In this document: positions 3,014-51,204 of the stretch, piece after piece | Layout of the letters: the number at the start of each line of letters is the position of its first letter | Position numbering within the stretch: the stretch's first letter is position 1 | DNA from: an uncultured Bacillota bacterium | Lineage (GTDB): Bacteria > Sysuimicrobiota > Sysuimicrobiia > Sysuimicrobiales > Segetimicrobiaceae | Direction: 5' to 3' | Length of the DNA: 64,000 bases | NCBI GenBank assembly: GCA_963804645.1 | Contig: CAWDRG010000015.1 | Span: 305,822 to 369,821, forward strand | The notes under the pieces: model-generated | Told to the model about the DNA's origin: nothing | The model's input: the letters and a program-made list of their open reading frames with translations, nothing else | Databases searched by the model: none | Program-made: the position numbers and the translations under genes

Positions 3014-3022
3014 GCACACGCG

Positions 3023-9185: not shown

Positions 9186-9237
9186 TGTCACCCAGCTATT
9201 GGACGAGTCAGGAGCGGGAGCGTAGCGTGGATCTTCT

Positions 9238-9261: not shown

Positions 9262-9354
9262 TTGTCCTGAGTGAAAAAAGTGAAATGAGATTTGCCCCAG
9301 CCCGTTCCAAGTCGGTCCGAACAGTGCGCCGGTCGCTTCAGCAATCCAACGTTC

Positions 9355-28538: not shown

Positions 28539-29029
28539 CTTCTTGGGCTCAGGGCGGCGCTGCCTGGCCGGGACGCCTCGCGCCGGCTCGGCACGCGGCG
28601 GGCGGGGCGTCCGGCTCACCCGCACCGCTGCGCCTCGCGTGCGCGCGCCGCGTCTCGATCGACGCCGCGCGGAGCGGCGGGGGCGCGCATCAGCGCCCGA
28701 TCGGGGGAAATACCACCGTGGCCATGTCGTTCTGCTACGTAGTTGGCGGTCATTCGGATCGCTCCGTGCCGGCGCGGTCCAGATCAGGATCGCCCGGCTG
28801 CGAGGGGCGCGTGAGCCGCGGCGCGGACGTGGCACTGACCCTGAACTGCCGGCGCGCCAGACAAGAATGTGTCCGGAGTTCTTCGCCCCGCGGGGCGAGT
28901 CTCCTGGGGCGCGGACCACAGGACCCGGCCGCACGCGCCGCGAAGATGGGAGAGCGGAGGCGGCCGGGAGTACGTCGGCCGCTTGTGTGTTCTCGCATCG
29001 GGCAGCCCGCGCGGCCGGGGAGGTGTGAT

Positions 29030-37265: not shown

Positions 37266-38399
37266 ATGCGGTATCAGCGGCAAGTCACCGGACTGGAGTA
37301 CGGGAAGAGTCACTACCCGGTGTACGACTCCGCGGATCTGGGATTTCGCGGGTACTGGTATCCCATCGCATTCTCGAAGCGTCTTCGGAAGACCCCGCTC
37401 GCGGTGACGCTGCTCGGCGAGGAATTGTGCCTGGTGCGGGACGTCGACGGCACGGCGTACTGCGTCGCCGACCGGTGTCCGCACCGCGGCATCCCGCTGT
37501 CCGAGGGGCAGCAGGACTTTCCCGGCACGATTACCTGTCCCTACCACGGGTTCACGTTTCGGCTGCGGTCCGGCGAGCTCGTCGGGGTGCTGACGGACGG
37601 GCCGGACTCGCCGCTGTGCGGGAAGCTGCGCGTGCGCGCGTATCCGGTCGAGGAGCGCGCCGGGTTGGTCTGGGTGTACATCGGCGACGACACACCGCAG
37701 CCGGTCGAGGCCGACATCCCTCAGGAGTTTCTCACCGAGCACGCCGTGGTGCAGGGCCGTATCACGGAGCGGGAGGGCGACTGGCGCCACGCGGCGGAGA
37801 ACGGGTTTGATGAGGGGCACGCGAAGTATCTGCATCGGAGCTCGTGGTTTCTGGCGTTCCGCCGCGTGCCGGCGTGGAGCCGGACCCGCGTCGTCACGGA
37901 CGACGCCGGCGTCTGGATCTCGCGAGTGCAGGATCAGATGGGGTGGGAGACAGATTATCCGGGCCTCGGGCGGTGGCCGCGATTCCGGGTGTGGCATCGC
38001 CGCGGCGGGGGACCGAGCACGGCGATCCGGCTCCCGGGGTTGCTGCGCGTCGGCTATCCGGACTGGGTCGACTTCGAGTGGTACATTCCGACGGTCCCGG
38101 GCCGGCACCTCTACGTGCAGATGGCGGTGGCCCAACGCACGGGGCTCGGCGCGCTCCTCTACCGGCTGAAGTACTGGGCGTACCTGCGGCCGGTGTTTCA
38201 CGGCCAGTTCAACGATCAGGACACGTGGATGGTCAGGCTGATGCGGACCCCGCCGGAGCGGCTCTATCGCCCCGACGTGTCCATCATCGCCTGGCGCAAG
38301 CTGGCAGAGACCGCGCGCGCCCTGCCTCCCGACGAGCGCGCCTCGGTGGCGAGCCTCTACACGACCGAAGACGAGCTTCGCGAAGAATCGCGGGCGTAA
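37266..38399 (+). CDS. Rieske non-heme iron oxygenase, catalytic (alpha-type) subunit
   Basis: The Rieske ligands are CPHRGIPL...CPYHGFTF. The mononuclear Fe motif is ENGFDEGHAKYLH (D-x2-H-x4-H). Confidence 0.8.
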   Translation: MRYQRQVTGLEYGKSHYPVYDSADLGFRGYWYPIAFSKRLRKTPLAVTLLGEELCLVRDVDGTAYCVADRCPHRGIPLSEGQQDFPGTITCPYHGFTFRLRSGELVGVLTDGPDSPLCGKLRVRAYPVEERAGLVWVYIGDDTPQPVEADIPQEFLTEHAVVQGRITEREGDWRHAAENGFDEGHAKYLHRSSWFLAFRRVPAWSRTRVVTDDAGVWISRVQDQMGWETDYPGLGRWPRFRVWHRRGGGPSTAIRLPGLLRVGYPDWVDFEWYIPTVPGRHLYVQMAVAQRTGLGALLYRLKYWAYLRPVFHGQFNDQDTWMVRLMRTPPERLYRPDVSIIAWRKLAETARALPPDERASVASLYTTEDELREESRA

Positions 38400-38411: not shown

Positions 38412-39251
38412 GTGGACCGTTCGGGCGGCACGGAACCGGCGGGGACGTTCGTGCAGGCGGGCGGCGTGCGCCTGCACTATCACGAGGTCGGTGACGGCGA
38501 TCCGCTGATTTGTCTGCACGGCGCGGGGCCCGGGGCCAGCGCGTGGAGCAATTTCAAGTCCAACGTCGGCGCGTTCGCGTCGAAGCACCGGGTCTTCCTC
38601 GTCGACCTGCCCCAATACGGGCGGTCGGAGAAGGTCGCGATCACCGGGGGACGCCTCACGTTCACGGCCCGCGTCCTCGACGCGTTCATGGAAGCGGTCG
38701 GCCTCACGTCGGCGCACGTGCTGGGGAACTCGATGGGCGGCCAGGTGGCGCTGAAGATGGCGATCGAGACCCCGCAGCGCGTCAAGCGGATCGCGGTGCT
38801 CGGCGCGTCGCCCATTTCGTTCAGCGCGCTGACGCCGCTGCCGGTGGAGGGCGTGCGCCTGATCCAGACCTACTACCGGGGCGCGGAGGGTCCCACCCGT
38901 GCCAAGATGCGGGCGCTGATGGAGACGCTCGTGGCGACGCCCGGGATCGTGACGGACGAGATGGTCGAGGAGCGGTACGCGGCGAGCGCCGATCCCGAGG
39001 TCGTGGCGCTGTTCACGAAGACGCCCCCCCAAAACGAGGATTTGTTCGCCGATCTCGGCAAGGTGGCCGCGCCGACGCTCGTGCTGTGGGGCCAGGACGA
39101 TCGATTCGGCGCGCTGGAAATCGGGCTGCTCTTGTTGAAGCGGCTTCAGAACGCCCGGATGGTCCTGTTTCCGCGATGCGGGCACTGGGCGCACGTCGAG
39201 CGCGCCGAGGAATTCAACCACCTGGTGCTCGATTTCTTCGCCGGCGGGTGA
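38412..39251 (+). CDS. Alpha/beta hydrolase, meta-cleavage-product (C-C bond) hydrolase-like (BphD/MhpC type)
   Basis: LHGAGPGASAWSNF, nucleophile elbow GNSMGG, C-terminal CGHWAHVE. Confidence 0.85.
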   Translation: MDRSGGTEPAGTFVQAGGVRLHYHEVGDGDPLICLHGAGPGASAWSNFKSNVGAFASKHRVFLVDLPQYGRSEKVAITGGRLTFTARVLDAFMEAVGLTSAHVLGNSMGGQVALKMAIETPQRVKRIAVLGASPISFSALTPLPVEGVRLIQTYYRGAEGPTRAKMRALMETLVATPGIVTDEMVEERYAASADPEVVALFTKTPPQNEDLFADLGKVAAPTLVLWGQDDRFGALEIGLLLLKRLQNARMVLFPRCGHWAHVERAEEFNHLVLDFFAGG

Positions 39252-39282: not shown

Positions 39283-39549
39283 ATGGCCCAATACGATGTG
39301 AACCGCGTGCTGTTCGATTTGATCCGGAAGCCCGACCGGGCGGAGATCCTGAAGAACCTCGGGCCGTTTCTCGAAGGCTACCGGCTCAGCGACGCGGAGA
39401 AGGCCGCGCTGCTGGACCCTGGATACGGACAGCTCCTGGCGCTCGGCGCCCTGCCGAATCTTGTCTTCAAGTATTATCTCTGGCACGGCCTGCCCCCCGG
39501 CGAGTACGCGGCCAGAGCGGCAGTGAATGCGCCGAAGTCGGGATCGTGA
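39283..39549 (+). CDS. LigA-like small subunit of class III extradiol dioxygenase
   Basis: 88 aa, sitting immediately upstream of a LigB-type gene. LSDAEKAALL and LVFKYYLWHG are reminiscent of the LigA domain. Confidence 0.65.
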   Translation: MAQYDVNRVLFDLIRKPDRAEILKNLGPFLEGYRLSDAEKAALLDPGYGQLLALGALPNLVFKYYLWHGLPPGEYAARAAVNAPKSGS

Positions 39550-39583: not shown

Positions 39584-40402
39584 GTGGCGGAGTTGGTCCT
39601 CGGTCTTGCCACGTCGCACGTCGCATTCATCACGCAGTCCCCGGAGATGGGCAGTCCGGCACAGGTCGAAGGCTTCCGCAACGGATACCGGCGGCTCGGC
39701 CAGGCGCTGCGGGACGCGCGCGCCGACGTCGCGGTCGTCATCTCGGGCGAACATCTCAACTACTTCTTCATCGACAACATGCCGGCGTTCTGCATCGGCG
39801 TGGCCGACGGGTTTGAGGGCCCGACGGAGCGCGGGGCGGGGATCCCGTACCGGCGCATTCCGGCGTCGGTCGAGCTCGCGAACTTCTTGCTGACGAGCGG
39901 CCTCGACCAGGGCGTGGACTGGGCGCGCACCGAGGGGTGGGAGCTCGACCACGGCATCATGGTCCCCCTGTACATGATCGACCAGGAGGCGCGCGTGCCG
40001 ATCGTGCCGGTGTTCATCAACTGCGCGGCGCCGCCGTGTCCGACCGCCCGCCGCTGCTACGCGTTTGGGGAGTGGCTGCGCGACGCGATCGCGCGGTGGG
40101 ACCCGTCGAAGCGCGTGGCGATCATCGCGACCGGCGGCCTCTCGCACTCGGTCGGCACGGAACGGATGGGATGGATCGACGAGGCGTTCGACCGGAAGTT
40201 CATCGCCGATTTCATCGGCAGCGACCGCCGGAAGATCACGACCCTGACCGACGAGCAGATCGCGGCGGCCGGGAACTCCACGAGCGAGATCCGTTCGTGG
40301 ATCGCCCTCGGCGGGGCGTTCGATCGCCGGCCGGCGGAGCTCGTCTTCTACGAGCCGATCGCGGGGTTCGCGACCGGATGCGGGCAGGTCTTGATGCGAT
40401 AG
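39584..40402 (+). CDS. Class III extradiol ring-cleavage dioxygenase, LigB-type catalytic subunit
   Basis: LGLATSHV, VVISGEHLNYFF, DHGIMVPL, GGLSHS. This is the LigB-family metal and acid-base pattern. Confidence 0.8.
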   Translation: MAELVLGLATSHVAFITQSPEMGSPAQVEGFRNGYRRLGQALRDARADVAVVISGEHLNYFFIDNMPAFCIGVADGFEGPTERGAGIPYRRIPASVELANFLLTSGLDQGVDWARTEGWELDHGIMVPLYMIDQEARVPIVPVFINCAAPPCPTARRCYAFGEWLRDAIARWDPSKRVAIIATGGLSHSVGTERMGWIDEAFDRKFIADFIGSDRRKITTLTDEQIAAAGNSTSEIRSWIALGGAFDRRPAELVFYEPIAGFATGCGQVLMR

Positions 40403-40448: not shown

Positions 40449-42713
40449 ATGACGCCGCGGCGCGCTGCGGGGACGGAGGCGCCGGCGCGTCCGCCGGCGC
40501 ACGCGGCGAGCCCCCGCCGGTTCGAGGACCGGGAACTCCTGCGCGGCGACGGCCGTTACGTCGACGACATCCGTCTGCCCGGCATGCTTCATGCGGCGAT
40601 CCTGCGCAGCCCGATGGCGCACGCGGTGCTCCGCCGCGTCGACCTCACGGGGGCGCGCGGCATCCCCGGGGTCGCCGCGGCGATCGCGTTCGCGGATCTG
40701 CCTCAGCCGGTCCCCGCGCTGCCGAACCTGCGGCCGCACGCGACCCTGCGCGCGCGCACGGCGTTTCCGCTCGCGCGCGATCGGGTGCGCCACGTCGGGG
40801 AAGCCGTCGCGCTCGTCGTGGCGACGAGCCGGTACCTTGCCGAGGACGCGCTCGACCGCATCGAGGTCGAGTACGAGGCGCTGCCGGCGGTCGGCGACCT
40901 CCGGGATGCGGTCGACGGCCGCCCCGCGCTGGTGCACGAGGACCTCGACTCCAATGTCGCGGCGCGGATCCGCCAGGAGATTGGCGACGTGCCGCTCGCG
41001 TTCGCGCAGGCCGACCTGGTCTTGCAGCATACGTGGTATATCTCGCGGGGCGCCGGTCAGGCGATGGAGACGCGCGGGATCGCGGCGGTCGAGGATCCCG
41101 ACTCCGGCGTGCTCACCGTATGGGCATCGTGCCAGCGCCCGCATCAGAACCGCCGGCACATCGCCGCGATGCTGGGCCTGCCCGACGCCCGCGTCCGCGT
41201 GATCGCGCCCCACGTCGGGGGCGGGTTCGGGCCGAAGGGGCGGTTCTACCAGGAAGACTATCTGATCCCGTACGTCGCGCGGATGCTCGGCCGCCCGGTG
41301 AAGTGGATCGAGGATCGGCGGGAGCATCTGCTGACGACCACGCAGGAGCGGGAGCAGATTCACGAGGTGTCGGTCGCGGTGGCGCGCGACGGCACCATCC
41401 TCGGCGTCCGCGACCGGTTCGTCCACGACATGGGCGCGTATGTGTCCGCGGGGCTCGTGGTCCCGTTCAACACGCTGTCGCTGCTCCCGGGGCCGTACCG
41501 GATTCCCGCGGTCGAGGTCGAGGCGACGTGTGTGTACACGAATCGGGTCACCGCCTCGCCGGTGCGTGGGGCCGGCCAGCCGGAGGCCGCGTACGTGATG
41601 GAGCATATCATGGACCTGGCCGCGACCGCGCTCGACCTCGACCCCGCCGAGGTGCGGACCCGCAACCTCATCGCGTCGGACGCGTTCCCGTACCGCGGAG
41701 GGATGCGCGACATGGACGGCCAGCCCATTGTGTACGACAGCGGCGACTATCGGCAGTGCCTGGCGAAAGCGCTCGAGGCGGTGGGCTACGCGTCGGCCCG
41801 CGCGGATCAGGCGCGCCTGCGGCGCGAGGGCGTCTATCGAGGCATCGGGCTCGCGTGCTACGTGGAGCTCACGGGGGTCGGCCCGCAGGAGGAAGCGATC
41901 GTCCGCGTCGACGACGGCCGGGTGCAGGTCATCGTCGGGTGCGGCGCCCAAGGCCAGGGCCACCGCACGATCCTCGCCCAGCTGTTCGCGGCCGAACTCG
42001 GCGTGCGCGCCGCCGACGTGGAGGTCCTGGAGGGCGACACGCAGCCGTCCGGGGTATCGATGGGCACGTACGGGAGCCGGACGGCCGTCGTCGCCGGCTC
42101 CGCGGTGATCGCGGCGGCCCGCGTGCTGCGGGAGAAGCTCTTCGCCGAGCGGCCGGACCTCGCGCGCGGGAACGGACCGGCGGCGCGCCGGGCGCAGGCA
42201 GAGGCGCTGGGGGAGCTCCACGGCCTCGAGGCCCGGGCCACGTTCTTGCCCTCGGCCCCGACGGTGAGCAGCGGCGTCCACGCAGCGATCGTCGAAGTGA
42301 CGCCGGAGTCGGGGGAGATGAACATCCTCCGGTACGTGATCGTGCACGACTGCGGCCGCATGATCAACCCGGTGCTCGTCGAAGGCCAGGTGGTGGGCGG
42401 CTTCGTGCACGGCCTCGGCGAGACGCTGTACGAGCGCCTCGTTTACGACGGCGATGGCCAGCCGCTGGCGACGACGTTGATGGACTACCTGCTGCCGACG
42501 GCGGCCGAGGTGCCGGAGGTGGTGCTGCAGCACGTCGAGGTGCCGTCGCCGCTCAACGTGCTCGGCGCCAAGGGCGCCGGTGAGGGCGGGGTGATTCCCG
42601 TCTCCGCCGCGCTGTCGCTGGCGGTGCAGGACGCGCTGCGTCCGTTCGGCGTCGCGATCGACCGGGTGCCTCTGATCCCGGAGATGCTGTGGCGAACGGA
42701 AGCGGGCCGGTAG
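40449..42713 (+). CDS. Xanthine dehydrogenase-family molybdopterin-binding large subunit (aldehyde oxidase/CoxL-like)
   Basis: 754 aa with RGDGRYVDDIRLPGMLHAAILRSP, GGGFG, SPVRGAGQPEA and GAKGAGEGG motifs. Confidence 0.9.
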   Translation: MTPRRAAGTEAPARPPAHAASPRRFEDRELLRGDGRYVDDIRLPGMLHAAILRSPMAHAVLRRVDLTGARGIPGVAAAIAFADLPQPVPALPNLRPHATLRARTAFPLARDRVRHVGEAVALVVATSRYLAEDALDRIEVEYEALPAVGDLRDAVDGRPALVHEDLDSNVAARIRQEIGDVPLAFAQADLVLQHTWYISRGAGQAMETRGIAAVEDPDSGVLTVWASCQRPHQNRRHIAAMLGLPDARVRVIAPHVGGGFGPKGRFYQEDYLIPYVARMLGRPVKWIEDRREHLLTTTQEREQIHEVSVAVARDGTILGVRDRFVHDMGAYVSAGLVVPFNTLSLLPGPYRIPAVEVEATCVYTNRVTASPVRGAGQPEAAYVMEHIMDLAATALDLDPAEVRTRNLIASDAFPYRGGMRDMDGQPIVYDSGDYRQCLAKALEAVGYASARADQARLRREGVYRGIGLACYVELTGVGPQEEAIVRVDDGRVQVIVGCGAQGQGHRTILAQLFAAELGVRAADVEVLEGDTQPSGVSMGTYGSRTAVVAGSAVIAAARVLREKLFAERPDLARGNGPAARRAQAEALGELHGLEARATFLPSAPTVSSGVHAAIVEVTPESGEMNILRYVIVHDCGRMINPVLVEGQVVGGFVHGLGETLYERLVYDGDGQPLATTLMDYLLPTAAEVPEVVLQHVEVPSPLNVLGAKGAGEGGVIPVSAALSLAVQDALRPFGVAIDRVPLIPEMLWRTEAGR

Positions 42714-42738: not shown

Positions 42739-44076
42739 GTGTCCGCGGTGGGAGACGGCGTGAACCTCACGGGAGAGCAGCGGCAGTGGGTCGAGGCCGC
42801 CTGGGCGAGCATCGACCGGGACGATGTTGCACGCCTCTTGGTCGAGATGGTCAATATCCCGAGTCCGCCCGGCGAGGAGCGGCCGCTGGCCGAGTTCATC
42901 GCGGCGCATCTCTCGGAGCGCGGGGTGCGCGCCCGCTGCCAGCTCCTCGACGACCGGCAGGCCAACGCGGTCGGCGTCTACCCCGGGCAGGGCGGCGGCG
43001 GAGATCTCCTCCTGTACGCCCCGATCGACACCGCGTTCACCGGCACCGAGGCTGACGATCTGCCGTGGACCGGCCCGCGCCTGCGGGCCGATCTCGTCCC
43101 CGTGGCGGCGGTGCAGGACGGGTTCGTGGTCGGGCTCGGCGCGGAGAATCCGAAAGGGTACGCGGCCTGCGTCATCGCGGCCGCGGAGGCGATCGCCCGC
43201 GCCGGCGTGCCGCTCCGGGGTGACCTGCTGGTCGGGCTCGGCGCGGGCGGGATGCCCGCGAACGCGCCGGCCGGCGGCCGCGGCCGCCGCAACGTCGCCC
43301 AGGGGGTCGGCTGCGCCCACATGCTGGAACAGGGCGTGCGCGGCGATTTCGCCGTGATCGCGAAGCCGGGCTGGACGGTGTCGTGGGAGGAGGTCGGCCT
43401 CTGCTGGTTCCGGGTCGACGTGAAGGGGGTCCTGGCGTACACCGGGATGCGACACATCCTGCCCTATCGCAGCGCGATCGTGGCCGCCGGCGAGGTGGCG
43501 CAGGCGCTCGAGCGGTGGTTCCCCGAGTACGCCGCCCGCAACACGTCCGGGTACGTCGCCCCGCAGGGCAGCATCGGTGCGATCGTCGGGGGATGGCCGC
43601 ACAAGCCGGCGTTCGCGCCGGCCGTCTGCCAGCTGTACGTCGATCTGCGCGTCAGCCCGCGCACGAGCCCGTCGGACGTGAAGGCGCAGTTCGCGGACGC
43701 GATCGAGGGGATCCGCCGCGCGCATCCGCACGTGGAGCTCGACTGGGAGATGATCCTCGGGATCCCCGGCTCCCATTCGGATCCCGACGACTGGATCGTG
43801 CGGTCCGCGATCCGAGGGTGGGAGGCGCTCGAGGGCCGTCCCCACGTGGCCGAACGAGGCAAGAGCGGCGCGACCGACGCGAACATCCTGCGCCAGTGGG
43901 GGGTCCCCACCGCGCGCATCGGGATGCCGCGGCCCACGCGTCCCGCCCCGTTCGCGGGACAGTTTTCGATGGGGGTCGCGGATTTGGAAAGCGCGCACAC
44001 GCTCATCCGGCTGCTCGTCCAGGTCGCGGTCGATACCTGCACCCGGCCGCGCGGCGAGCTGGGGTTGGAGTCCTGA
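42739..44076 (+). CDS. M20 (ArgE/DapE/CPG2)-fold protein, canonical metal ligands apparently substituted
   Basis: M20 pattern LLVEMVNIPSPPGEE...LLLYAPIDTAF...GLGAENPKG...GATDANI. In-frame GTGs at 42748 and 42760 are alternative starts. Confidence 0.75.
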   Translation: MSAVGDGVNLTGEQRQWVEAAWASIDRDDVARLLVEMVNIPSPPGEERPLAEFIAAHLSERGVRARCQLLDDRQANAVGVYPGQGGGGDLLLYAPIDTAFTGTEADDLPWTGPRLRADLVPVAAVQDGFVVGLGAENPKGYAACVIAAAEAIARAGVPLRGDLLVGLGAGGMPANAPAGGRGRRNVAQGVGCAHMLEQGVRGDFAVIAKPGWTVSWEEVGLCWFRVDVKGVLAYTGMRHILPYRSAIVAAGEVAQALERWFPEYAARNTSGYVAPQGSIGAIVGGWPHKPAFAPAVCQLYVDLRVSPRTSPSDVKAQFADAIEGIRRAHPHVELDWEMILGIPGSHSDPDDWIVRSAIRGWEALEGRPHVAERGKSGATDANILRQWGVPTARIGMPRPTRPAPFAGQFSMGVADLESAHTLIRLLVQVAVDTCTRPRGELGLES

Positions 44077-44657
44077 TGGCGAGGGAGCGCCGGCCGGCCG
44101 TTCCACGCCCCTCGGCCGCCGCACCGGGGCCGGCGGCGACCGACCCGGGCGAGGGGAGCGCCGCCCACGACGCGTACGCCGCGCTCCGGAGCGCGGGCGT
44201 GGACTTCGCGGTCTACCTGCCCGACAGCGTGCTGCATCAGGTGGCGGGCCTGCTCGAGGCGGACCCCGAGGTCCGCACCGTGGTGTGTTCGCGCGAGGAC
44301 GAGGGCGTGGCGCTCGCGGTGGGCGCGTCGCTCGCGGGACGGCTGCCCGTCGTCCTGATGGAAGGCTCGGGCATGGGCTACTGCGGGTTGATTTTGGCGA
44401 GGGCGCTCCTGCAGCGCACCGCCATGCTGATCCTGGCCAGCCACAACCGCGTCCTCGGCGAACGGTTCGACTATCACGGGGCCACCCGGATCGTCGGCGA
44501 GGGGACCGCGGAGGGCCTCGGTCTCCCGCGCCTCGTCGTGCACGATCGCGCGATGCTCCGCACCGCGATTCGCGGCGCTGTCCAAACGATCCAGGGACAA
44601 AAGGTGCCCGTCTGCCTGTTCATCCCCGGGTACGTCATGCTCGGAGGCGCCCCGTGA
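44076..44657 (+). CDS. ThDP-dependent 2-oxoacid decarboxylase alpha subunit (sulfopyruvate/phosphonopyruvate decarboxylase ComD-like, PYR domain)
   Basis: TGATG overlap with the M20 gene. Pattern GVDFAVYLPDSVL, SREDEGVALAVGASLAG, VVLMEGSGMG. Confidence 0.75.
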   Translation: MARERRPAVPRPSAAAPGPAATDPGEGSAAHDAYAALRSAGVDFAVYLPDSVLHQVAGLLEADPEVRTVVCSREDEGVALAVGASLAGRLPVVLMEGSGMGYCGLILARALLQRTAMLILASHNRVLGERFDYHGATRIVGEGTAEGLGLPRLVVHDRAMLRTAIRGAVQTIQGQKVPVCLFIPGYVMLGGAP

Positions 44658-45274
44658 CGTACCAAGACGTGCTCGAGGCGCTCGCCGCGTCGCGCGGCGC
44701 GGCCCCCGCGGTCGCCGGACCGGGCCTGTTGTCGCGCCTGCTGTGGGCGACCGAGCGCGCGCACGTGAGCCTCTACCAGATGGAGCTCGGCTACCCCACC
44801 GCCGTCGCGCTCGGACTCGCGCTCGCGATGCCCGGCGAGCGCGTCGTCGCGGTCGAGGGGGACGGGTCGATGCTCGCCGGCGTCGGCGTGCTGGCGACGG
44901 TCGCGCGCTATCACGCGCCGAACCTGGTCGTGCTGGTGTGCGACAACGGCGTCTATGGGACGGTCGGCGCCGGCACCATGGAGAGCGCGACGCGGCACGG
45001 CGCGGACCTGGCCGCGCTCGCGCGCGCCAGCGGATGGGACTCCGGCAAGGTGATCGCGGTGGAGACGGCCCGGGAGACCGCCGACGCGCTGTCGCGCGCG
45101 TTCCGGGACCCCGGACCGTGGTGCATCGTGGCGCGCGTCGCGCACACGCCGAACGAGCGCGCGGGCGGCGCCGGACAGATTCCCCTCGACGTCGTCGAGG
45201 GCGCGATGGCGTTCCGCCGCGAGATGCTGCAGCGGCGTGCGGCCGCCGGCCCGGGCGCCGGAGGCGCGCGATGA
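44654..45274 (+). CDS. ThDP-dependent decarboxylase beta subunit (ComE-like, PP domain)
   Basis: GTGA overlap with the alpha subunit. The ThDP-binding motif is VEGDGSMLAGVGVLATV...VLVCDNGVYG. Confidence 0.75.
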   Translation: MTYQDVLEALAASRGAAPAVAGPGLLSRLLWATERAHVSLYQMELGYPTAVALGLALAMPGERVVAVEGDGSMLAGVGVLATVARYHAPNLVVLVCDNGVYGTVGAGTMESATRHGADLAALARASGWDSGKVIAVETARETADALSRAFRDPGPWCIVARVAHTPNERAGGAGQIPLDVVEGAMAFRREMLQRRAAAGPGAGGAR

Positions 45275-46353
45275 ACGCGTACCGGACGCTCGTGCGGCCC
45301 GCCGCGTTTCTTCTGCCGCCGGAGACCGCCCACCGCGTGGCGCTGTGGACGCTGCGGCGCGCCCGGATGTGGGAGGCGCTCCGCCCCGCGTTCACCTTCA
45401 CCGATCCCGCGCTGCGCCAGCGCATCGGCGGGCTGGAGTTCCACAATCCGGTGGGCGTTGCGCCCGGGTTCGACAAAGACGGCGAGGCCCTGCGCGGGCT
45501 CGCCTGCCTCGGCTTCGGCTTTCTCGAGAGCGGTACCGTGCTGCCGCTGCCGCGCGCGGGCAATCCCGGCCCGCGCCTGCTACGGTATCCCGAGCAGGAA
45601 GCGCTCGCGAACTGCCTCGGGCTCCCGGGCCGCGGCGTCCACGGGTGCGCCGAGCTGCTGCGGCGCTGGCGGGCGCGCGGGCCTGCCGGGGTCCCGGTGA
45701 TCGTGAGCTTCATGGGCTTCACCCTGGACGAGTACGTGCGGGTGTTCAGCGAGCTGCAGCCGTGGGCCGACGCGCTCGAGGTCGCGCTCCGGTGTCCCAA
45801 CACCCCGGACGAGCGGAACTTTGTCGACCGCGACGAGTTCGGAACGCTGCTCGCCGCGTTGATGGAGTACAAACGGAAGCCGGTCTGGGTGAAGCTGCCG
45901 TCGCTCGACGTGGAGGTGGATCGCCAGCACCTCGCCGACCTGGTGGAGATCGGCCTCCGCCACGGCGTGGACGGCTTCATGGTGTCGGGCACGCGGCCCA
46001 TCGACGAGCCGCGTCTGTCCCGCGGGCGCGGCAGCCTGAGCGGACGCCCCGTGCTGGGGCGCACCCTGGAGGCCGTCGGCGTCGTGTATCGAGCGACGCG
46101 CGGGCGCGCGCCGATCGTCGCGCAGGGCGGGATCAGCTCGGGCGCGGACGCCTTGGCCGCGATCGCGTCCGGCGCCAACGCCGTGAGTGTCTATACGCAG
46201 TTCGTGTACGACGGGCCCGGGCTCGCGAGCCGAATCAATCGGGAGTTGGTGGCGTTGATGCGCGCCCGCGGGGCCGGATCGATCCAAGACCTGTGCGGGT
46301 GCGGGCCGCTGAGCGTCGATCCTGCCGTGCGGGAGACGGCGTCCACTGGCTGA
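45271..46353 (+). CDS. Dihydroorotate dehydrogenase-like FMN oxidoreductase, divergent paralog
   Basis: ATGA overlap with the upstream gene. It has the DHOD scaffold (FHNPVGVAPGFDKDGE, GFGFLESGTV, VWVKLP, GSLSGRPV, AQGGISSG, VSVYTQFVYDGPG), but the active-site loops differ from the canonical copy at 21009-22083. Confidence 0.8.
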   Translation: MNAYRTLVRPAAFLLPPETAHRVALWTLRRARMWEALRPAFTFTDPALRQRIGGLEFHNPVGVAPGFDKDGEALRGLACLGFGFLESGTVLPLPRAGNPGPRLLRYPEQEALANCLGLPGRGVHGCAELLRRWRARGPAGVPVIVSFMGFTLDEYVRVFSELQPWADALEVALRCPNTPDERNFVDRDEFGTLLAALMEYKRKPVWVKLPSLDVEVDRQHLADLVEIGLRHGVDGFMVSGTRPIDEPRLSRGRGSLSGRPVLGRTLEAVGVVYRATRGRAPIVAQGGISSGADALAAIASGANAVSVYTQFVYDGPGLASRINRELVALMRARGAGSIQDLCGCGPLSVDPAVRETASTG

Positions 46354-46387: not shown

Positions 46388-47944
46388 GTGATGCGCACCG
46401 CCGCTCGCGTCGTCGTCGTCCTGCTCGTCGCGCTGCTCGTCGCGGTACCGCCCGCGCTCGGGCCAGCGCAGGCCGCCGGGCCCGCTCCGTCCCGCGGCCG
46501 CACGCTGACCTACGCCGCGTCCGCGGACGTAGACAACCTCGACCCGGCGCAGCGCGGAGGCACCATCTCCGCGGCCGTCAAGGATCTGCTGTACAGCAGT
46601 CTCGTCGACGAAACGCCGAGCCGGGAGATCGCTCCGGACTTGGCGATGTCCTGGAAGGCCGACGGGACCGTCTGGACGCTCGCGCTGCGGCGGGGCGTCA
46701 AGTTCCAGGACGGGACCCCGTTCAATGCCCAGGCGGTCAAGGCGCACTACGACCGCCTGTTCAGCGCGGAGAACCCACAGCGGTCGAGCGACTGGAAACC
46801 GTACCTGGATCGCGTCGAAGTGGTCGACGACAACACGATCCGGTTCGTGACGAAATACCCGGACCCGTTCTTTCTTCTTCGGCTGGCCGCGTCCTCGCAG
46901 ATCGAGAGCCCGACGGCCTTCAAGAAGTACGGGAAGGACATCGCGCGGAATCCCGTGGGCGCGGGTCCGTTCCGGCTCCAGGAGTGGACCCCGGACGTAC
47001 GCGTCGTCGTCGTCCGCTACGATGACTACTGGGGGGACAAAGCGTACCTCGACCAGGTGATCATCCGCCCGGTGCCGGAGCCCGGGGCCCGTGCGATCGC
47101 GCTCGAATCCGGCGACGTGCAGCTCGCGGACCTGATCTCGCCCGAAGACATGCCGCGGCTGCGCGCCAATCCGAATCTCCGGCTCGATTCCGTCTCCACC
47201 GTCCGGCAGCTCACGGTCGGCATGAACAACACGAAGAAGCCCTTTACCGACGTCCGGGTGCGCCAAGCCCTGAACTACGCGGTCGACCGTCCGGCGATCG
47301 CGAAAGGCATCTTCGTGGGGCTCGCCGAGGTCTTGCCGGGCGCGGTGCCGACGCTGGCCAGCGGCTACGCGGTCGTGGACAGCTTCCCGTCTGACCCCGA
47401 CAAAGCGCGGCAGCTGCTTGCGGACGCGGGGTATCCGCACGGGTTCACCGCCACGCTGACGGGGACGAAGGGCAGGTATTTCAAGGACTTCGAGATGATG
47501 CAGGCCGTGCAGCAGATGCTCAAGCGCGTGGGCGTCACCACGAACATTCAGGTCGTCGAGTGGGCACGCTACCTCGAGCTCGTCAACATCCCGCCCGACA
47601 AGAGCCCCCTCGAGATGTGGCTCGACGGGTGGTCCAGCGACAGCGCGACGGACATCCTCCAGCAGCGCTTCGGCTGTGAGTTCATGCGCCCGCACGGCGT
47701 CAATCTTCACGGGTACTGCAACCGGGATCTCGACGCGCTCGTCAACCAGGCGGCGCGCACGATGGACGACACCCAGCGCAACACGTACCTGAAGCTGGCG
47801 CAGCAGTTGATTCAGAAGGACGCGCCGAGCATCTGGGGGCTCGAGACCAAGTCCACCGCCGGGATGAACAAGAAGCTGCACGGCGTGCTCCACTACTACG
47901 ACGAGACCCTGACCGTCGACGAGCACACCTGGCTGGAACCCTGA
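46388..47944 (+). CDS. ABC transporter substrate-binding protein, family 5
   Basis: AAGGGAGG lies 6 nt upstream. It has a signal peptide and the SBP_bac_5 pattern (WTLALRRGVKFQDGTPFNAQAV, DDYWGDKAY). Confidence 0.9.
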   Translation: MMRTAARVVVVLLVALLVAVPPALGPAQAAGPAPSRGRTLTYAASADVDNLDPAQRGGTISAAVKDLLYSSLVDETPSREIAPDLAMSWKADGTVWTLALRRGVKFQDGTPFNAQAVKAHYDRLFSAENPQRSSDWKPYLDRVEVVDDNTIRFVTKYPDPFFLLRLAASSQIESPTAFKKYGKDIARNPVGAGPFRLQEWTPDVRVVVVRYDDYWGDKAYLDQVIIRPVPEPGARAIALESGDVQLADLISPEDMPRLRANPNLRLDSVSTVRQLTVGMNNTKKPFTDVRVRQALNYAVDRPAIAKGIFVGLAEVLPGAVPTLASGYAVVDSFPSDPDKARQLLADAGYPHGFTATLTGTKGRYFKDFEMMQAVQQMLKRVGVTTNIQVVEWARYLELVNIPPDKSPLEMWLDGWSSDSATDILQQRFGCEFMRPHGVNLHGYCNRDLDALVNQAARTMDDTQRNTYLKLAQQLIQKDAPSIWGLETKSTAGMNKKLHGVLHYYDETLTVDEHTWLEP

Positions 47945-47967: not shown

Positions 47968-49341
47968 ATGACGATGCAGGTGTTGCGGGGGACGTTCATC
48001 GACGGCACCGGCCGGGGGCCTGTCCCGGACGGCGTGCTGCACGTCGACGGCAAGCGGATCGCCTTCGCGGGACCGGCGAACGCCGCGCCGCCGGTGCCGC
48101 CGTCCGCGGAGGTGCTCGATCTCCGGCCGCGCACGCTGCTGCCGGGGTTGATCGACTGCCACGCCCATCCCGTGCCGGGTGTCACGGGGGACGGCGACGC
48201 GGCGCTGCCCTGGGCCGACGAGCTGCGCGTGCTGCACGCCACGGAGCTGATGCAGCGGGCGCTGCGCTCGGGCGTGACCACCATCCGCAACGTCGGCGCG
48301 CCGCGCTACACCGCGTACTCCGTCAAGGAGGCGGTCGAGCGCGAGTTCGTGTTCGGGCCCCGGCTGCTGGTCTCCGGGCCGATCATCTGCCCGACCGGCG
48401 GCCACGGACATGCGGGCGGCGGCGCGGCCGATGGACCCGACGGCGTACGCCGCCAGGCGCGTACGTACTTCCGCGACGGCGCCGACTTCCTCAAGCTCTC
48501 GGCGACCGGCGGCGGAACGGCCCGCACGGTCCGGCACCGCTCGACCTACACCGTCGAGGAGATCCACGCCGCGGTGGACGAGGCGATCCAGCACGAAAGC
48601 TACGCCACGGCGCACGTCCACGGGACGGAGGGCATCGTCCGGTGCCTGGACGCCGGGATGCCGATGCTGGAGCACGTGACGTTTGTCGGGCCCGACAACG
48701 TGGAGCACTTCGACCGCGACGTGGCCTCGCGCATCCGAGACACTCATGTGATCGTCGTCCCGACCGTCCAGGTGTACGGCCGGTGGGCCGAGACGAGCCC
48801 GGGCCGTCTCGATTCCCTGAGCGCCGACGACCTCGATGCGTGGCAGGCGCGGTACGAGAGCCTGCCGTACATGCTGCACCCGTTTCCGCGGCTCGATCGG
48901 ATCGGCGCGCGCGAGCTCGTGACCTGGCACCACCGGTTCGACAGCTTCTTCAAGCGGGTGGAGATCGTGGGGCGGCTCCACGAGATGGGGGTCGTGCTGC
49001 TGATGGGCTCGGACGGAGGCGGCCGGCCGGCGCCGATCGATGACCTCGGCCACGGCATTGCGCTGCACGTGCGCGCGGGGGTGCCGCCGCTCGACGCGAT
49101 CTCTTCCGCGACCGGGCTCGCGGCCAAGTGGATCCGCCTCGACGACGTGACCGGGACGCTCGAGGCCGGGAAAGAGGCCGATATCATAGCGGTGGATGGC
49201 GATCCGTTGACCGACATTACCGCCCTGTCGCGCGTGGCATTCGTGATGGCCCGCGGGCGCGTCGCGAAGGCGCCGCCGCTCGAGGCGCCGGACCCGGGAC
49301 GCCGGGCCACGCGGGCGGCGTCGCAGGCCTCGTCGCACTAG
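47968..49341 (+). CDS. Amidohydrolase-family metal-dependent hydrolase
   Basis: LLPGLIDCHAHP, DFLKLSATGG, AHVHG, LEHV and GSDGG give the amidohydrolase_1 ligand series. Confidence 0.8.
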   Translation: MTMQVLRGTFIDGTGRGPVPDGVLHVDGKRIAFAGPANAAPPVPPSAEVLDLRPRTLLPGLIDCHAHPVPGVTGDGDAALPWADELRVLHATELMQRALRSGVTTIRNVGAPRYTAYSVKEAVEREFVFGPRLLVSGPIICPTGGHGHAGGGAADGPDGVRRQARTYFRDGADFLKLSATGGGTARTVRHRSTYTVEEIHAAVDEAIQHESYATAHVHGTEGIVRCLDAGMPMLEHVTFVGPDNVEHFDRDVASRIRDTHVIVVPTVQVYGRWAETSPGRLDSLSADDLDAWQARYESLPYMLHPFPRLDRIGARELVTWHHRFDSFFKRVEIVGRLHEMGVVLLMGSDGGGRPAPIDDLGHGIALHVRAGVPPLDAISSATGLAAKWIRLDDVTGTLEAGKEADIIAVDGDPLTDITALSRVAFVMARGRVAKAPPLEAPDPGRRATRAASQASSH

Positions 49342-49384: not shown

Positions 49385-50311
49385 ATGCTGCGCTACGCGC
49401 TGAGGCGGATCCTCCTCCTCGTCCCGGTCCTGCTGGGCGTGTCGCTCGCGTCATTCCTGCTGCTGCACCTAATCCCCGGGGATCCGGCGGTCATCCTCGC
49501 GGGCGAAGACGCGTCCCCGGCGCAGCTGGCCGCCATCCGCACCGAGTTCGGCCTCAACGCCCCGCTCGCAGTCCAGTACGTGCGCTACATCGGGCGGGCG
49601 CTTCGGGGCAACCTCGGCATCTCCATGCAGACCCGCGCGCCCATCACCCAGACGTTGATCGCCCGCATGAGGTTCACCGTGCAGCTCACGCTGTGGAGCC
49701 TGGCGCTCGCGGTGACGGTCGGGGTCGCCGTCGGCGTCCTCGCCGCCACCCACCAGAACTCGTGGCTGGACGGCGGGCTGATGCTCATGGCGCTCATCGG
49801 CCTGTCGATGCCGAGCTTCTGGCTCGGCTTGCTGCTGCTGCTGGTGTTCGCGGGTATGCTGCACTGGCTGCCGTCCGGCGGGAGCGGCGGCCTCCAGTAC
49901 CTCATCCTGCCCGCCGTCGTGCTCGGGATGTCGGGCGCGCCGGTGATCGCCCGTCTGGTCCGCGCCTCGATGCTGGAGGTGATCCGCCAGGACTACATCC
50001 GCGCGCTCCGCGCGCACGGCGTGCCGGAGCGGCGGGTCATCTACCGCCACGCCCTGCGGAACGCGCTCAACCCGGTGATCACCGTCGTCGGGCTGCAGTT
50101 CGGCTTCCTGATGGCGGGCGCCGTGATCGTGGAGACGGTGTTCGCGCTGCCGGGCGTCGGGCGCCTCATGGTGACGGCGATCTTCTCCCGGGATTACCCG
50201 GTGATCCAGGGCGGGCTGCTGCTGATCGCCGTGGCGTTCGTCGCCGTCAATCTGTTGATCGACCTCGCGTACGCGTGGATCAATCCCAGGATTCGGTACG
50301 GGCGGGCATGA
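49385..50311 (+). CDS. ABC transporter permease (DppB type)
   Basis: MLRYALRRILLLVPVLLGVS N-terminus and EAA region YIRALRAHGV. Confidence 0.9.
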   Translation: MLRYALRRILLLVPVLLGVSLASFLLLHLIPGDPAVILAGEDASPAQLAAIRTEFGLNAPLAVQYVRYIGRALRGNLGISMQTRAPITQTLIARMRFTVQLTLWSLALAVTVGVAVGVLAATHQNSWLDGGLMLMALIGLSMPSFWLGLLLLLVFAGMLHWLPSGGSGGLQYLILPAVVLGMSGAPVIARLVRASMLEVIRQDYIRALRAHGVPERRVIYRHALRNALNPVITVVGLQFGFLMAGAVIVETVFALPGVGRLMVTAIFSRDYPVIQGGLLLIAVAFVAVNLLIDLAYAWINPRIRYGRA

Positions 50312-51204
50312 GCGGAGCGGTCGTGAACGCGGTTGACCCGGAACCGGCGGCGGCCCCGGCCGGCCCGGGAGAGGCCGACGGGACGTGGCGCCGGCTCAGA
50401 CGGCACCGCGGCGCCGTCGTTGGGATGGTGATCGTTGGGCTGTACGCCGCGGTGGCGCTGCTCGCCAACGTGCTCGCGCCGTACGATCCCACGGACGGCG
50501 ACGTGCTGGCGCGCCTGCAGCCGCCGAGCGCGCAGCACCTGCTCGGGACCGACGAGCTCGGGCGCGACATCCTGAGCCGCCTCGTGGTCGGCGCCCGCAC
50601 GTCGCTCGTGATCCAGGTCACGGCGGCGGCGCTCGCGATGGTCGTCGGGGTCGTCTGGGGGCTCGGGGCCGGATATTTCGGCGGGTGGGTCGATGAGATC
50701 AGCATGCGGGCGATCGATGTGCTCCTCGCGTTTCCCAGCATCTTGCTGGCGATCGCCATCGTGGCGATCGTCGGCACCGGACTGGAGAACATCATCGTCG
50801 CGGTGGGGATCGCGTCGGTGCCCCAGTTCGCCCGCCTCGTCCGCGGCGTGGTGCTGGACCTGCGCCACGCGGAGTTTGTCGAGGCGGCCCGGGCGATCGG
50901 CGAACCGGATGCGTCCATCATGTTCCGGTACATCATGCCGGGGACGCTCGCGCCGGTCATCGTCCTGACGAGCCTGCGCATGGCGACGGTCCTCCTCGCG
51001 GCGGCCGGCCTCAACTTTCTCGGCCTGGGGGTGCAGCCGCCGACGCCCGAGTGGGGGGCGATGCTGTCCAACGCCCGCGACTACATGTTCGCCGCGCCGT
51101 TCGTGACGACGTTCCCGGGGCTCGCGATCACGCTCGTCGTCATCGGCTTCAATCTCCTTGGGGACGGCCTGCGGGATGCGCTCGATCCGCGGATGCGGGA
51201 CTGA
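50308..51204 (+). CDS. ABC transporter permease (DppC type)
   Basis: ATGA overlap with the upstream permease. Pattern HLLGTDELGRDILSRL and EFVEAARAIG. Confidence 0.9.
   Translation: MSGAVVNAVDPEPAAAPAGPGEADGTWRRLRRHRGAVVGMVIVGLYAAVALLANVLAPYDPTDGDVLARLQPPSAQHLLGTDELGRDILSRLVVGARTSLVIQVTAAALAMVVGVVWGLGAGYFGGWVDEISMRAIDVLLAFPSILLAIAIVAIVGTGLENIIVAVGIASVPQFARLVRGVVLDLRHAEFVEAARAIGEPDASIMFRYIMPGTLAPVIVLTSLRMATVLLAAAGLNFLGLGVQPPTPEWGAMLSNARDYMFAAPFVTTFPGLAITLVVIGFNLLGDGLRDALDPRMRD

Follow-up and report, generated by a model that had tools for sequence, protein, structure and literature searches.

What does a second homologue of dihydroorotate dehydrogenase (DHOD) do when its gene overlaps that of a split ThDP enzyme? 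The question is raised by a 64,000-nucleotide stretch of DNA from an uncultured Bacillota bacterium (hereafter the window; contig CAWDRG010000015.1), which encodes a quinone-dependent pyrD at 21009–22083 and a paralog at 45271–46353, both, like every other window gene described below, on the forward (+) strand. Although automatic annotation would label the paralog a dihydroorotate dehydrogenase, its sequence places it in a cysteine-type branch of the DHOD family that has not been described before. In uncultured soil bacteria it neighbors the split ThDP enzyme in a probable cluster for degradation of a nitrogen-containing aromatic compound, and the enzyme probably readies a ring carboxylic acid for decarboxylation rather than serving pyrimidine synthesis.

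The pyrD copy was used for comparison. An earlier note on this DNA had listed five canonical motifs for it, all of which are present but spread over two frames, with NRLGFNSPG, ANLGKN, NVSSPNTPGLR, and LVATNATV in one and EAGGLSGVPV in the next, a frameshift that the note did not mention. Removal of one G near 21786–21788 restores read-through, and the frame-repaired protein is a solid PyrD (NF003652, 424 bits versus a cut-off of 267). The single-base frameshift may be an assembly error in a gene that is otherwise intact and high-scoring. The translation of 45271–46353, which is 37% identical to this PyrD, contains each of the five motifs previously read in it: ANCLGLPGRG, VSFMGFT, ALRCPNTPDERN, FMVSGTRPI, and RGSLSGRPV. 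The FMN barrel and class-2-like N-terminal extension that had been claimed are borne out by a Pfam DHO_dh match (E=1e-52) and by an AF2 model (pLDDT 95.4) that superimposes on class 2 DHODH from human and from M. tuberculosis with TM 0.82–0.87 over ~360 columns, the N-terminal helices included. The quinone-site Arg is kept, with P101-R102 invariant, and the product is probably a membrane-associated, quinone-linked, FMN-dependent dehydrogenase. It scores 213.7 bits against TIGR01036 (cut-off 200), below the cut-off of all ten PRK05286 sub-models, and 22.7 bits against the PreA profile; its relatives in loci L016 and L012 are themselves under the TIGR01036 cut-off.

Alignment to E. coli PyrD (E. 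coli numbering) showed that K66, N111, N177, T178, and K217 are retained and that N172 is replaced by Ala, S174 by Arg, S175 by Cys, and N246 by Gly. The Cys said to occupy the base position is thus the counterpart of S175. The reported loss of the orotate-binding Asn residues holds for two of the four (N172 and N246), but N111 of the N-R-x-G-F-N-N stretch persists as A-N-C and N177 is likewise restored by the alignment. A Cys base works in class 1 DHODs, and Cys is also found at the base/acid position of DPD/PreA. The active-site pattern K/N/A/R/C/N/T/G occurs in 11 of 12 subfamily members, the window included, and one member (P0011) has Trp where the others carry the active-site Arg. These changes are conserved in the subfamily, and a role as the housekeeping DHOD is very improbable for the paralog. 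Placed in a phylogeny, as had been suggested, the Cys-type homologues are monophyletic (55 of 55), with no Ser-type sequence among them. The Lys of GKN is absent, as stated before, but its loss is clade-wide and extends to the SISG-type sister group, which retains the Ser/Thr base and both Asn, and is therefore no evidence for a changed substrate. The subfamily is rare: it makes up a single 50%-identity cluster out of 1.84 billion representatives, occurs in one of 185,579 species-representative genomes, and is carried by no cultured organism.

Upstream of the paralog are genes for an M20 (ArgE/DapE-like) amidohydrolase (42739–44076) and for the alpha (PYR domain, 44076–44657) and beta (PP domain, GTG start, 44654–45274) subunits of the ThDP enzyme. 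Successive genes overlap by TGATG (44074–44078), GTGA (44654–44657), and ATGA (45271–45274), and the four form a translationally coupled block. The M20 protein scores just over the Peptidase_M20 cut-off (25.3 versus 24.6 bits), just under that of M20_dimer (20.1 versus 21), and under that of NCBIfam ArgE/DapE (68 bits), and orthologues with 69–78% identity occupy the equivalent position in L001, L002, and L003. The alpha subunit matches TPP_enzyme_N, with its catalytic Glu in an invariant C-S/T-R-E-D-E motif, and its REDE, EGS (MEGSG/TEGSG), and LGE motifs are invariant among 10 aligned orthologues. The beta subunit matches TPP_enzyme_C (E=5e-19) and has a GDGS...DNG diphosphate-binding motif, and G69-D70-G71 and N98 are invariant across 29 homologues. 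The earlier description of a ComDE-like two-subunit ThDP decarboxylase therefore stands as to domains and ATGA overlap, but the proteins fall below every ComDE/Ppd cut-off. Their best-named profile matches are sulfopyruvate and phosphonopyruvate decarboxylases, all well under cut-off: alpha scores 57 bits against TIGR03845 (cut-off 148), and beta is under the cut-off of all NCBIfam equivalogs (PRK06163, 86.5 versus 240; ComE, 82 versus 221.5; Ppd, 77 versus 312.5), with weak matches to IolD (32.6 bits) and, for the enzyme, to the solved putative phosphonopyruvate decarboxylase 9iz3. As previously reported, neither a PEP mutase nor a sulfolactate gene is nearby: the motif EDKx5NS is absent from every frame of the window, and no sulfolactate or CoM genes were found.

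The block is not self-standing but lies within a cluster of ~16 kb, absent from the earlier note, that we interpret as one for N-heteroaromatic degradation. The cluster opens with a CarAa/OxoO-type Rieske non-haem iron oxygenase, a predicted homotrimeric ring hydroxylase (37266–38399; Pfam Rieske and Aromatic_hydrox), whose closest relatives of solved structure are carbazole 1,9a-dioxygenase CarAa (E=2e-49) and 2-oxoquinoline 8-monooxygenase (E=1e-34) and which is conserved in L001, L005, L007, L009, L012, and L016. It is followed by a BphD/HsaD/CarC-like alpha/beta hydrolase of the meta-cleavage-product (C-C) type (38412–39251; Abhydrolase_1; HsaD, 248 bits, and BphD, 208 bits, both under the NCBIfam cut-off), conserved in L001, L009, L005, and L016. 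A class III extradiol dioxygenase is encoded by a LigA-like small-subunit gene (39283–39549), whose Pfam LigA match is weak and below cut-off (E=3e-4) and which recurs with the same position and Pfam assignment in L001, the P0012 locus, and L016, and by a LigB catalytic-subunit gene (39584–40402; E=3e-37) present throughout the related clusters. The large subunit of a molybdenum hydroxylase of the xanthine oxidase/CoxL family (40449–42713; Ald_Xan_dh_C, MoCoBD_1, and MoCoBD_2) precedes the coupled block; the FAD (M) and 2Fe-2S (S) partner subunits that it needs are absent from the window and are encoded adjacently in L001, L016, and L019. Downstream are a family 5 (Opp/Dpp-type) ABC substrate-binding protein (46388–47944; SBP_bac_5, E=2e-89), in place of which related clusters have an NMT1-type protein, an amidohydrolase-superfamily metallohydrolase (47968–49341; Amidohydro_1 and Amidohydro_3) with two similar genes in the P0012 locus, and two permeases and two ATPases of Opp/Dpp type (49385–53140; BPD_transp_1, OppC_N, ABC_tran, and oligo_HPY).

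This gene order is repeated in L001 (62% identity), L002 (75%), L003, and the P0012 loci (51%). In five further clusters, from three Cys-type subfamilies and different lineages, the DHOD-like gene occurs with the same partners, namely the split ThDP enzyme, the xanthine-oxidase-type Mo hydroxylase, the CarAa-like Rieske oxygenase, and the LigAB dioxygenase, joined in four of the five by the meta-cleavage hydrolase. The association is rearranged in the GLICPNT subfamily (Rokubacteria loci L005, L007, L009, and L012) and the ALRCPNR subfamily (L016 and L019), each locus of which has ThDP alpha/beta, Mo hydroxylase, and LigB genes. The Rieske gene is found in L005, L007, L009, L012, and L016 and not in L019, whose contig portion read stops at LigB, and the alpha/beta hydrolase gene is found in L005, L009, and L016. 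Adjacency does not settle the order of the reactions, and the DHOD-like and ThDP genes are 3–8 kb apart in L005, L007, L009, L012, and L019. In L012, a UbiD-family (hetero)aromatic acid decarboxylase is encoded directly upstream of the DHOD-like gene. Four short or partial loci (L004, L006, L008, and L020) have no ThDP gene near the Cys-type homologue. Conversely, ThDP alpha/beta orthologues adjoin Mo hydroxylases without a DHOD-like gene, as in Beijerinckia (L017), which fits a decarboxylate-then-hydroxylate pair.

The evidence consists of folds, sequence motifs, the structure of the clade, and conserved gene order; what each enzyme catalyzes, in which sequence, and on what kind of substrate is inferred from it. 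We tentatively favor a route in which a cyclic acid resembling dihydroorotate is desaturated by the flavoenzyme and its product is decarboxylated directly by the ThDP enzyme; with similar reserve, the target of the cluster may be a nitrogen-heteroaromatic compound that also bears a carbocyclic ring. The compound would be imported by the ABC transporter and trimmed or ring-closed by the amidohydrolases (M20 and Amidohydro_1) to yield a cyclic acid that contains N-CH(COO-)-CH2-C(=O), the motif found in dihydroorotate. Cys175 of the DHOD-like enzyme would abstract a proton while FMN accepts a hydride from the carbon that bears the carboxylate, and the product would be a 2-carboxylate conjugated with the ring. 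In the homologue's own numbering, the carboxylate and reaction-center ligands K69, N114, N177, T178, and K208 are retained; Ala172 and Gly240 stand in place of the two Asn that recognize orotate at its ureido edge, and position 174 has gained an Arg. The far side of the substrate would therefore be something other than a urea, perhaps a fused ring. ThDP alpha/beta would then decarboxylate a cyclic enamino/imino acid, as LumK/LumL does 3-oxo-quinoxaline-2-carboxylate, the freed CH=N carbon would be hydroxylated to a lactam by the Mo hydroxylase, and the carbocyclic ring would be opened and cleaved by the CarAa-like Rieske oxygenase, LigAB dioxygenase, and C-C hydrolase. DHOD chemistry gives a C=C, whereas LumK/LumL acts on a substrate with a ring C=N, so that tautomerization or an aromatic product is needed for the two steps to couple.

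The earlier note had proposed oxidation of a cyclic acid other than dihydroorotate, which fits the synteny, followed by decarboxylation of a 2-oxo acid, which fits less well given that LumK/LumL takes an alpha-imino-type carboxylate. A free 2-oxo acid, hydrolyzed from the product of a cyclic or open-chain dihydro acid and converted to an aldehyde by a ComDE/Ppd-type enzyme, is unlikely: the named profiles and 9iz3 point that way and the flanking M20 and amidohydrolase genes could liberate such an acid, but the scores are far under the ComD (57 against 148), ComE, and Ppd cut-offs, genes for PEP mutase, sulfolactate, and CoM metabolism are absent, no aldehyde dehydrogenase is conserved beside the module, and the recurrent Mo hydroxylase acts on heteroaromatic C-H rather than on small-2-oxo-acid aldehydes, even if some family members oxidize aldehydes. 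Less probable still is reductive operation in the manner of dihydropyrimidine dehydrogenase, in which a C=C in a uracil- or pyridone-like ring would be saturated, the ring opened by the amidohydrolase, and a carbamoyl or acyl group removed by M20. Such a reductive-pyrimidine-type triad would accommodate the Cys as well as the Amidohydro_1 and one or two M20 genes, these being the families of dihydropyrimidinase and some beta-ureidopropionases. Against it are the class 2 quinone-domain fold, the lack of a PreT-like Fe-S/NAD partner, the negligible PreA similarity, and redox potentials, from which a quinol would be too weak to reduce such a C=C; the ThDP enzyme would also be left unexplained. 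It is highly improbable that the ThDP enzyme is a ring C-C hydrolase/lyase (cyclohexane-1,2-dione hydrolase (CDH)- or IolD-like) or a carboligase, with a vicinal dicarbonyl from the flavoenzyme or Mo hydroxylase as its substrate. The superfamily includes such activities, IolD is among the weak beta-subunit matches, and lumichrome-type degradation proceeds via quinoxaline-2,3-diones, but known CDH and IolD are single chains of about 600 aa with a middle domain, and the characterized split enzymes (ComDE, Ppd, and LumK/LumL) are all decarboxylases (PMC12746152). Least probable is a working DHOD, possibly the sole one given the interrupted pyrD, since the TIGR01036 score, the retained residues, and the precedent of a Cys base are outweighed by the subfamily-wide Asn replacements and Arg beside the base, the PRK05286 and relatives' TIGR01036 shortfalls, the catabolic context, and a one-base frameshift that may be an assembly error.

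Among functional precedents for a two-subunit ThDP enzyme that is encoded with a Mo hydroxylase, a ring-opening Rieske oxygenase, and an extradiol dioxygenase, LumK/LumL is the closest. In the lumichrome pathway of Nocardioides simplex, reconstituted in 2025, LumK/LumL decarboxylates a heterocyclic carboxylate, the heteroaromatic alpha-imino-type 3-oxo-quinoxaline-2-carboxylate rather than a free 2-oxo acid, just before the Mo hydroxylase step, after which a Rieske dioxygenase opens the ring and an extradiol dioxygenase acts (PMC12746152). The likeness is one of size and gene context, the window subunits having 193 and 206 aa and LumK/LumL about 20 and 23 kDa; the xanthine-oxidase-type hydroxylase, ring-opening Rieske oxygenase, extradiol dioxygenase, and several amidohydrolases are shared, and some relatives of the window cluster likewise have isochorismatase and FAA-hydrolase genes. 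Unlike the window, the lum cluster has a P450, an alpha/beta-type Rieske enzyme, and a Mo enzyme of one 140-kDa chain, and it lacks a DHOD-like gene (PMC12746152), so the analogy leaves that gene itself unexplained. ComDE and the split phosphonopyruvate decarboxylases share the alpha (PYR) and beta (PP) division, but the window proteins score well under their cut-offs and CoM, sulfolactate, and PEP mutase genes are lacking. Class 2 PyrD (TIGR01036; PDB 1F76 and 1D3G) shares with the homologue its full-length fold, N-terminal helical domain included, the FMN-binding Lys residues, carboxylate-binding loop, N111, N177, and quinone-site Arg, whereas the homologue has Cys for the Ser base and the N172, N246, and S174 replacements (Ala, Gly, and Arg), forms a separate clade, is very rare, and lies among catabolic genes. 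Class 1A DHOD and DPD/PreA also have Cys at the proton-transfer position, and the N-x-x-G-L-P and S-x-x-G loops of the homologue resemble class 1, but in class 1 the N-terminal domain is missing and all four Asn are present. The carbazole genes carAa-carC-carBa-carBb have four enzyme families in common with the window, in what we take to be the same order as in Nocardioides aromaticivorans IC177. Among proteins of solved structure, CarAa matches the Rieske protein best, yet the similarity is remote (E about 1e-49, 330 residues), and the scanned part of the window yielded no CarAc/CarAd electron-transfer genes. To these carbazole-type genes the window joins those of a Mo hydroxylase, the ThDP enzyme, and the DHOD-like enzyme.

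On the forward strand, positions 42739–46353 hold four genes, the stop codon of each overlapping the start of the next. The first of these encodes an M20 amidohydrolase (42739–44076) and ends in a TGA at 44074–44076 that overlaps the ATG, at 44076, of the ThDP alpha gene (44076–44657), whose 193-amino-acid product corresponds to the N-terminal (PYR) domain and matches Pfam TPP_enzyme_N. The ThDP beta subunit (206 amino acids, C-terminal or PP domain, Pfam TPP_enzyme_C, E=5e-19) begins with a GTG at 44654 in a GTGA overlap, and the DHOD homologue (the paralog, 360 amino acids, Pfam DHO_dh, E=1e-52) begins at 45271, where the ATGA overlap described in the earlier note was confirmed. All of the paralog motif strings quoted in that note were found in the translation of 45271–46353. 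Scans of the whole window with Rfam and for tRNAs gave no matches.

An AlphaFold2 model of the paralog, built with 118 homologues (mean pLDDT 95.4, pTM 0.93), places helices at residues 3–12, 17–28 and 31–41 and was matched by Foldseek to the human, rat and M. tuberculosis DHODHs with TM scores of 0.82–0.87 over about 360 columns. The three N-terminal helices and the full-length superposition bear out the claim that the paralog has a class 2-like N-terminal extension, and in the model both the TIM-barrel FMN domain and an N-terminal helical quinone domain are present. A Pro-Arg pair is invariant in the alignment, and its Arg is the quinone/inhibitor-site residue of human DHODH. Given the class 2 fold of the model and this invariant pair, the paralog would be expected to carry out quinone-linked oxidation and not reduction. 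With 213.7 bits the paralog lies narrowly above the cut-off of 200 for TIGR01036, one curated PyrD threshold, and would be annotated as pyrD; it is below the cut-off for NF003652 (255 bits, cut-off 267) and for nine other PRK05286 models. Two other members with a Cys in the base position fell under the cut-off on all class 2 models, TIGR01036 included.

The active site was examined by aligning the paralog and its relatives with E. coli PyrD and L. lactis DHODA, two reference sequences whose lengths and published residue numbers (K66, N111, N172, S175, N177, K217, N246; K43, N67, N127, C130, N132, K164, N193) were as expected. In E. coli numbering the paralog retains K66, N111, N177, T178 and K217 and carries the substitutions N172A, S174R, S175C and N246G. 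The Cys that the earlier note had read in the base position is thus supported by alignment to E. coli PyrD; the catalytic Ser175 is absent, and Cys175 is invariant in the window subfamily and in all 55 members of the clade described below. Loss of the orotate-binding Asn residues, also claimed, proved correct for N172 and N246 and incorrect for N111 and N177, so that two of the four ligands (N111, N172, N177, N246) are kept. In the structures of DHODA and the E. coli enzyme these four Asn bind orotate, and the two that are missing here, Asn172 and Asn246, contact its N3-H/C=O edge. Because K66, N111, N177, T178 and K217 are kept, the ligands of the carboxylate and of the reacting C-C bond are retained in the paralog. 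Two details of the original claim did not survive: the conserved ligand is not the Asn of GFNN but an Asn three residues earlier, present in the paralog as A-N-C, and loss of the Lys of GKN is seen as well in the neighbouring S-I-S-G group, which has a Ser/Thr base and both Asn. Eleven close homologues (proteins P0015, P0022 and P0024 among them) have Thr for Ser at the base and keep all of the Asn residues (N-S-T-N).

The Cys base is shared with class 1 DHODs and DPD/PreA proteins. These enzymes are without the N-terminal quinone domain and keep the four Asn residues, whereas the paralog has the domain and is missing two of the four. Class 1B DHODs and DPD also have a PyrK or PreT partner, whereas no PyrK- or PreT-like gene was found in any of the DHOD-like clusters; the paralog scored 22.7 bits against the PreA profile. 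Neighbour joining of 133 sequences places every Cys-type protein (55 of 55) in one clade that holds no Ser-type sequence and has the S-I-S-G Ser/Thr-type group as its sister, and the paralog, whose phylogenetic placement had been suggested in the earlier note, falls within it. Subfamilies of this clade are recognized by the motifs A-L-R-C-P-N-T...S-G-T (that of the window), A-L-R-C-P-N-R...G-N-W, G-L-I-C-P-N-T, S-x-C and G-Q-C. A Cys without Asn at 246 occurs in 45 of the 118 closest database proteins, and the signature of Cys with neither N172 nor N246 offers a simple rule by which about 40% of the nearest homologues in the databases can be told apart from true DHODs. The window subfamily itself is rare: among 1.84 billion representatives it fills a single cluster at 50% identity, its metagenomic members number about a dozen (51–98% identity), and of 185,579 species-representative genomes one, an Armatimonadota MAG, has it. 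The Chloroflexi MAG JACQUR01 (loci L004, L006 and L008) has four or more DHOD-like genes of the Cys type, among them a tandem pair.

The canonical pyrD of the window (21009–22083, +), used in the earlier note as the canonical copy for comparison, is not a single open frame. Its N-terminal 260 residues, through LVATNATVRREGLRSPRG, lie in one frame and the sequence from AEAGGLSGVPV onward in the next; deletion of one G near 21786–21788 gives a 357-amino-acid PyrD that reads through. Repaired in this way, the protein scores 424 bits with NF003652 (cut-off 267) and 377 bits with TIGR01036 (cut-off 200), and the paralog is 37% identical to it. The frameshift may be a fault of the assembly or a real lesion that makes the gene a pseudogene; among the other large genes of the window, those that were checked align with their Pfam models over the full length. 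A CoxG-like gene (20499–20951) lies just upstream.

The earlier note had labelled the ThDP enzyme ComDE-like, an assignment that fails on both equivalog scores, which are far under their cut-offs (57.1 against 147.95 for TIGR03845 and 82.1 against 221.5 for TIGR03846), and on context, as no CoM or sulfolactate genes occur among the neighbours of the ThDP genes. The Ppd model TIGR03297 fares no better, giving 34.8 and 76.9 with the two subunits (cut-off 312.5). The PEP mutase motif EDKx5NS is absent from the six frames of the window, in agreement with the remark that no PEP mutase gene is nearby. Invariant in the alpha subunits are C-S/T-R-E-D-E, which includes the cofactor-activating Glu, the EGS within M/T-E-G-S-G, and L-G-E; the beta subunits have G-D-G...N in common, which in the window reads GDGS...DNG. 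A profile search with 29 beta sequences returned 1,441 matches at E<=1e-6. In some loci, such as L017 of Beijerinckia, alpha and beta orthologues adjoin a Mo hydroxylase and no DHOD-like gene is present, and more distant beta homologues (Rhizobium L013, L014/L015, Phytohabitans L018) lie in loci that also have no DHOD-like gene.

Upstream of the coupled block, the window encodes a Rieske oxygenase of the CarAa/OxoO type (its closest match of solved structure is carbazole 1,9a-dioxygenase, E=2e-49), a BphD/HsaD-like C-C hydrolase, LigA- and LigB-type extradiol dioxygenase subunits, and the large subunit of a Mo hydroxylase; downstream come the genes of an Opp-type ABC transporter, with one for an amidohydrolase lying among them. 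This gene order is repeated in L001 (DHOD-like protein 62% identical), L002 (75%), L003 and the two P0012 contigs (51%); all of these loci also have a further M20 gene and an ABC transporter of the NMT1 type, and some have isochorismatase, creatininase or formamidase genes. The same partner genes, in rearranged clusters, accompany two further Cys-type subfamilies. In Rokubacteria/Methylomirabilota, the loci L005, L007, L009 and L012 each combine the DHOD-like gene with genes for a Rieske oxygenase, Mo hydroxylase, ThDP alpha and beta, and LigB, and an alpha/beta hydrolase was detected in L005 and L009. L016 encodes M20, hydrolase, Rieske, LigA, LigB, ABC transporter, isochorismatase, DHOD-like, ThDP alpha/beta, Mo hydroxylase M/S/L, SDR and FAA hydrolase proteins. 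L019 encodes Mo hydroxylase S/M/L, a DHOD-like protein, an NMT1 ABC transporter, ThDP beta/alpha, an FAA hydrolase and LigB; the stretch of this contig that was read, which ends at the LigB gene, showed neither a Rieske nor a hydrolase gene. The ThDP genes lie within 10 kb of the Cys-type gene in 12 of the 16 loci inspected, the window included, and the four loci without them (L004, L006, L008 and L020) are all short or partial. The finding is real, and is more interesting within its cluster than as an isolated DHOD-like/ThDP pair.

Several features of these loci stand apart. In L006 and L020 the partner of the Cys-type gene is an NMT1-type binding protein, and neither locus shows a ThDP enzyme. 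In L012 a 919-amino-acid UbiD-family decarboxylase with an extra N-terminal region (7165–9924) is encoded directly 5' of the Cys-type gene; a GMC oxidoreductase and a small subunit of the gluconate-2-dehydrogenase type follow it. The 64 kb contain no gene for an FAD or 2Fe-2S partner of the Mo hydroxylase large subunit (40449–42713); L002 shares this lone large subunit, and the FAD/2Fe-2S subunits adjoin it in L001, L016 and L019. Folate genes at 25–27.5 kb (FTHFS and 5-FTHF cyclo-ligase) were excluded from the cluster because they are conserved in no related locus. When the paralog and the ThDP beta protein were searched against plasmid records, they returned only ordinary pyrD and remote ThDP proteins (30–50% identity, partial), placing the module on no catabolic plasmid. 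Elsewhere in the window, 622–11427 has a lower GC content (0.57–0.62 against 0.70–0.74) and encodes a Liv-type ABC transporter, a class IV aminotransferase, a RuBisCO-like protein, an acid-sugar kinase, a BKACE enzyme and a cyclase; the RuBisCO-like gene (6574–7833) runs directly into that of the SBD_N/NBD_C kinase (7830–9185), a pairing that recalls acid-sugar catabolic clusters. Long reading frames with high GC3 and no Pfam match occur at 23426–25132 (-, 568 amino acids) and 28520–29866 (+, 448 amino acids).

From the folds, motifs, clade structure and synteny observed here we infer the chemistry of a whole route. The DHOD-like enzyme would desaturate a cyclic acid with the dihydroorotate core N-CH(COO-)-CH2-C(=O) and a far side other than urea, the ThDP enzyme would take the carboxylate off the conjugated ring acid formed in this step, the Mo hydroxylase would oxidise the carbon so exposed, and the Car-like trio would dispose of the carbocyclic ring. 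We tentatively propose, while regarding it as rather unlikely, that the Cys-type DHOD homologues are a new family aromatising benzo- or ring-fused dihydroorotate analogues, and that their desaturation and the decarboxylation by a LumK/LumL-like ThDP enzyme make up a route of two steps ('desaturate then decarboxylate') feeding quinoline-, quinoxaline- or carboline-type 2-carboxylates into a Mo hydroxylase and angular dioxygenase pathway. One candidate substrate of the Cys-type homologues, 4-oxo-1,2,3,4-tetrahydroquinoline-2-carboxylate, has the same N-CH(COO-)-CH2-C(=O) motif; lumichrome and other alloxazines, kynurenate, quinoline-4-carboxylate, tetrahydro-beta-carboline-3-carboxylate and pterin-6-carboxylate were also considered, and the evidence singles out none of these compounds. 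Literature searches on dihydroorotate dehydrogenase-like catabolic clusters, on angular dioxygenase with molybdenum and thiamine, on kynurenate catabolic clusters, on the PDB entry 9U8Q and on what the DHODH Asn residues do yielded nothing usable. So far the proposed pathway is found only in uncultured soil lineages (the Armatimonadota MAG, Rokubacteria/Methylomirabilota MAGs and unbinned metagenome contigs), and it points to an unstudied route of N-heterocycle degradation whose enzymes can be expressed and assayed directly.

The known system closest in kind is lumichrome catabolism, reconstituted in Nocardioides simplex in 2025, in which hydrolases first open the pyrimidine ring and the two-subunit ThDP enzyme LumK/LumL (20 + 23 kDa) then decarboxylates 3-oxo-3,4-dihydroquinoxaline-2-carboxylate, a heterocycle decarboxylation that its authors describe as new ThDP chemistry (PMC12746152). 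The freed carbon is hydroxylated by a xanthine-oxidase-type enzyme, after which a Rieske dioxygenase opens the N-ring and an extradiol dioxygenase cleaves the catechol (PMC12746152). The lum operon differs in having a P450 and no DHOD-like gene ('dihydroorotate' does not occur in the text of PMC12746152), and homology searches, including one with a profile of 29 ThDP beta sequences, recovered no Nocardioides simplex protein. If the proposed coupling is true, ThDP-dependent heterocycle decarboxylation, first reported in 2025, would reach beyond one actinobacterial operon, and a role would be suggested for the widespread, unassigned split ThDP proteins. Like LumK/LumL, the ThDP enzyme of the window has two subunits, and it keeps REDE, with the catalytic Glu, and GDGS...DNG. 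The trio of xanthine-oxidase-type hydroxylase, ring-opening Rieske enzyme and extradiol dioxygenase is incomplete in L019 (hydroxylase and LigB, the stretch that was read containing no Rieske gene) and in L017 (Mo hydroxylase only), and is present in full in the window and in L001, L005, L007, L009, L012 and L016. In architecture and context, as distinct from demonstrated orthology, the enzyme families and logic of the lumichrome pathway closely match the window cluster.
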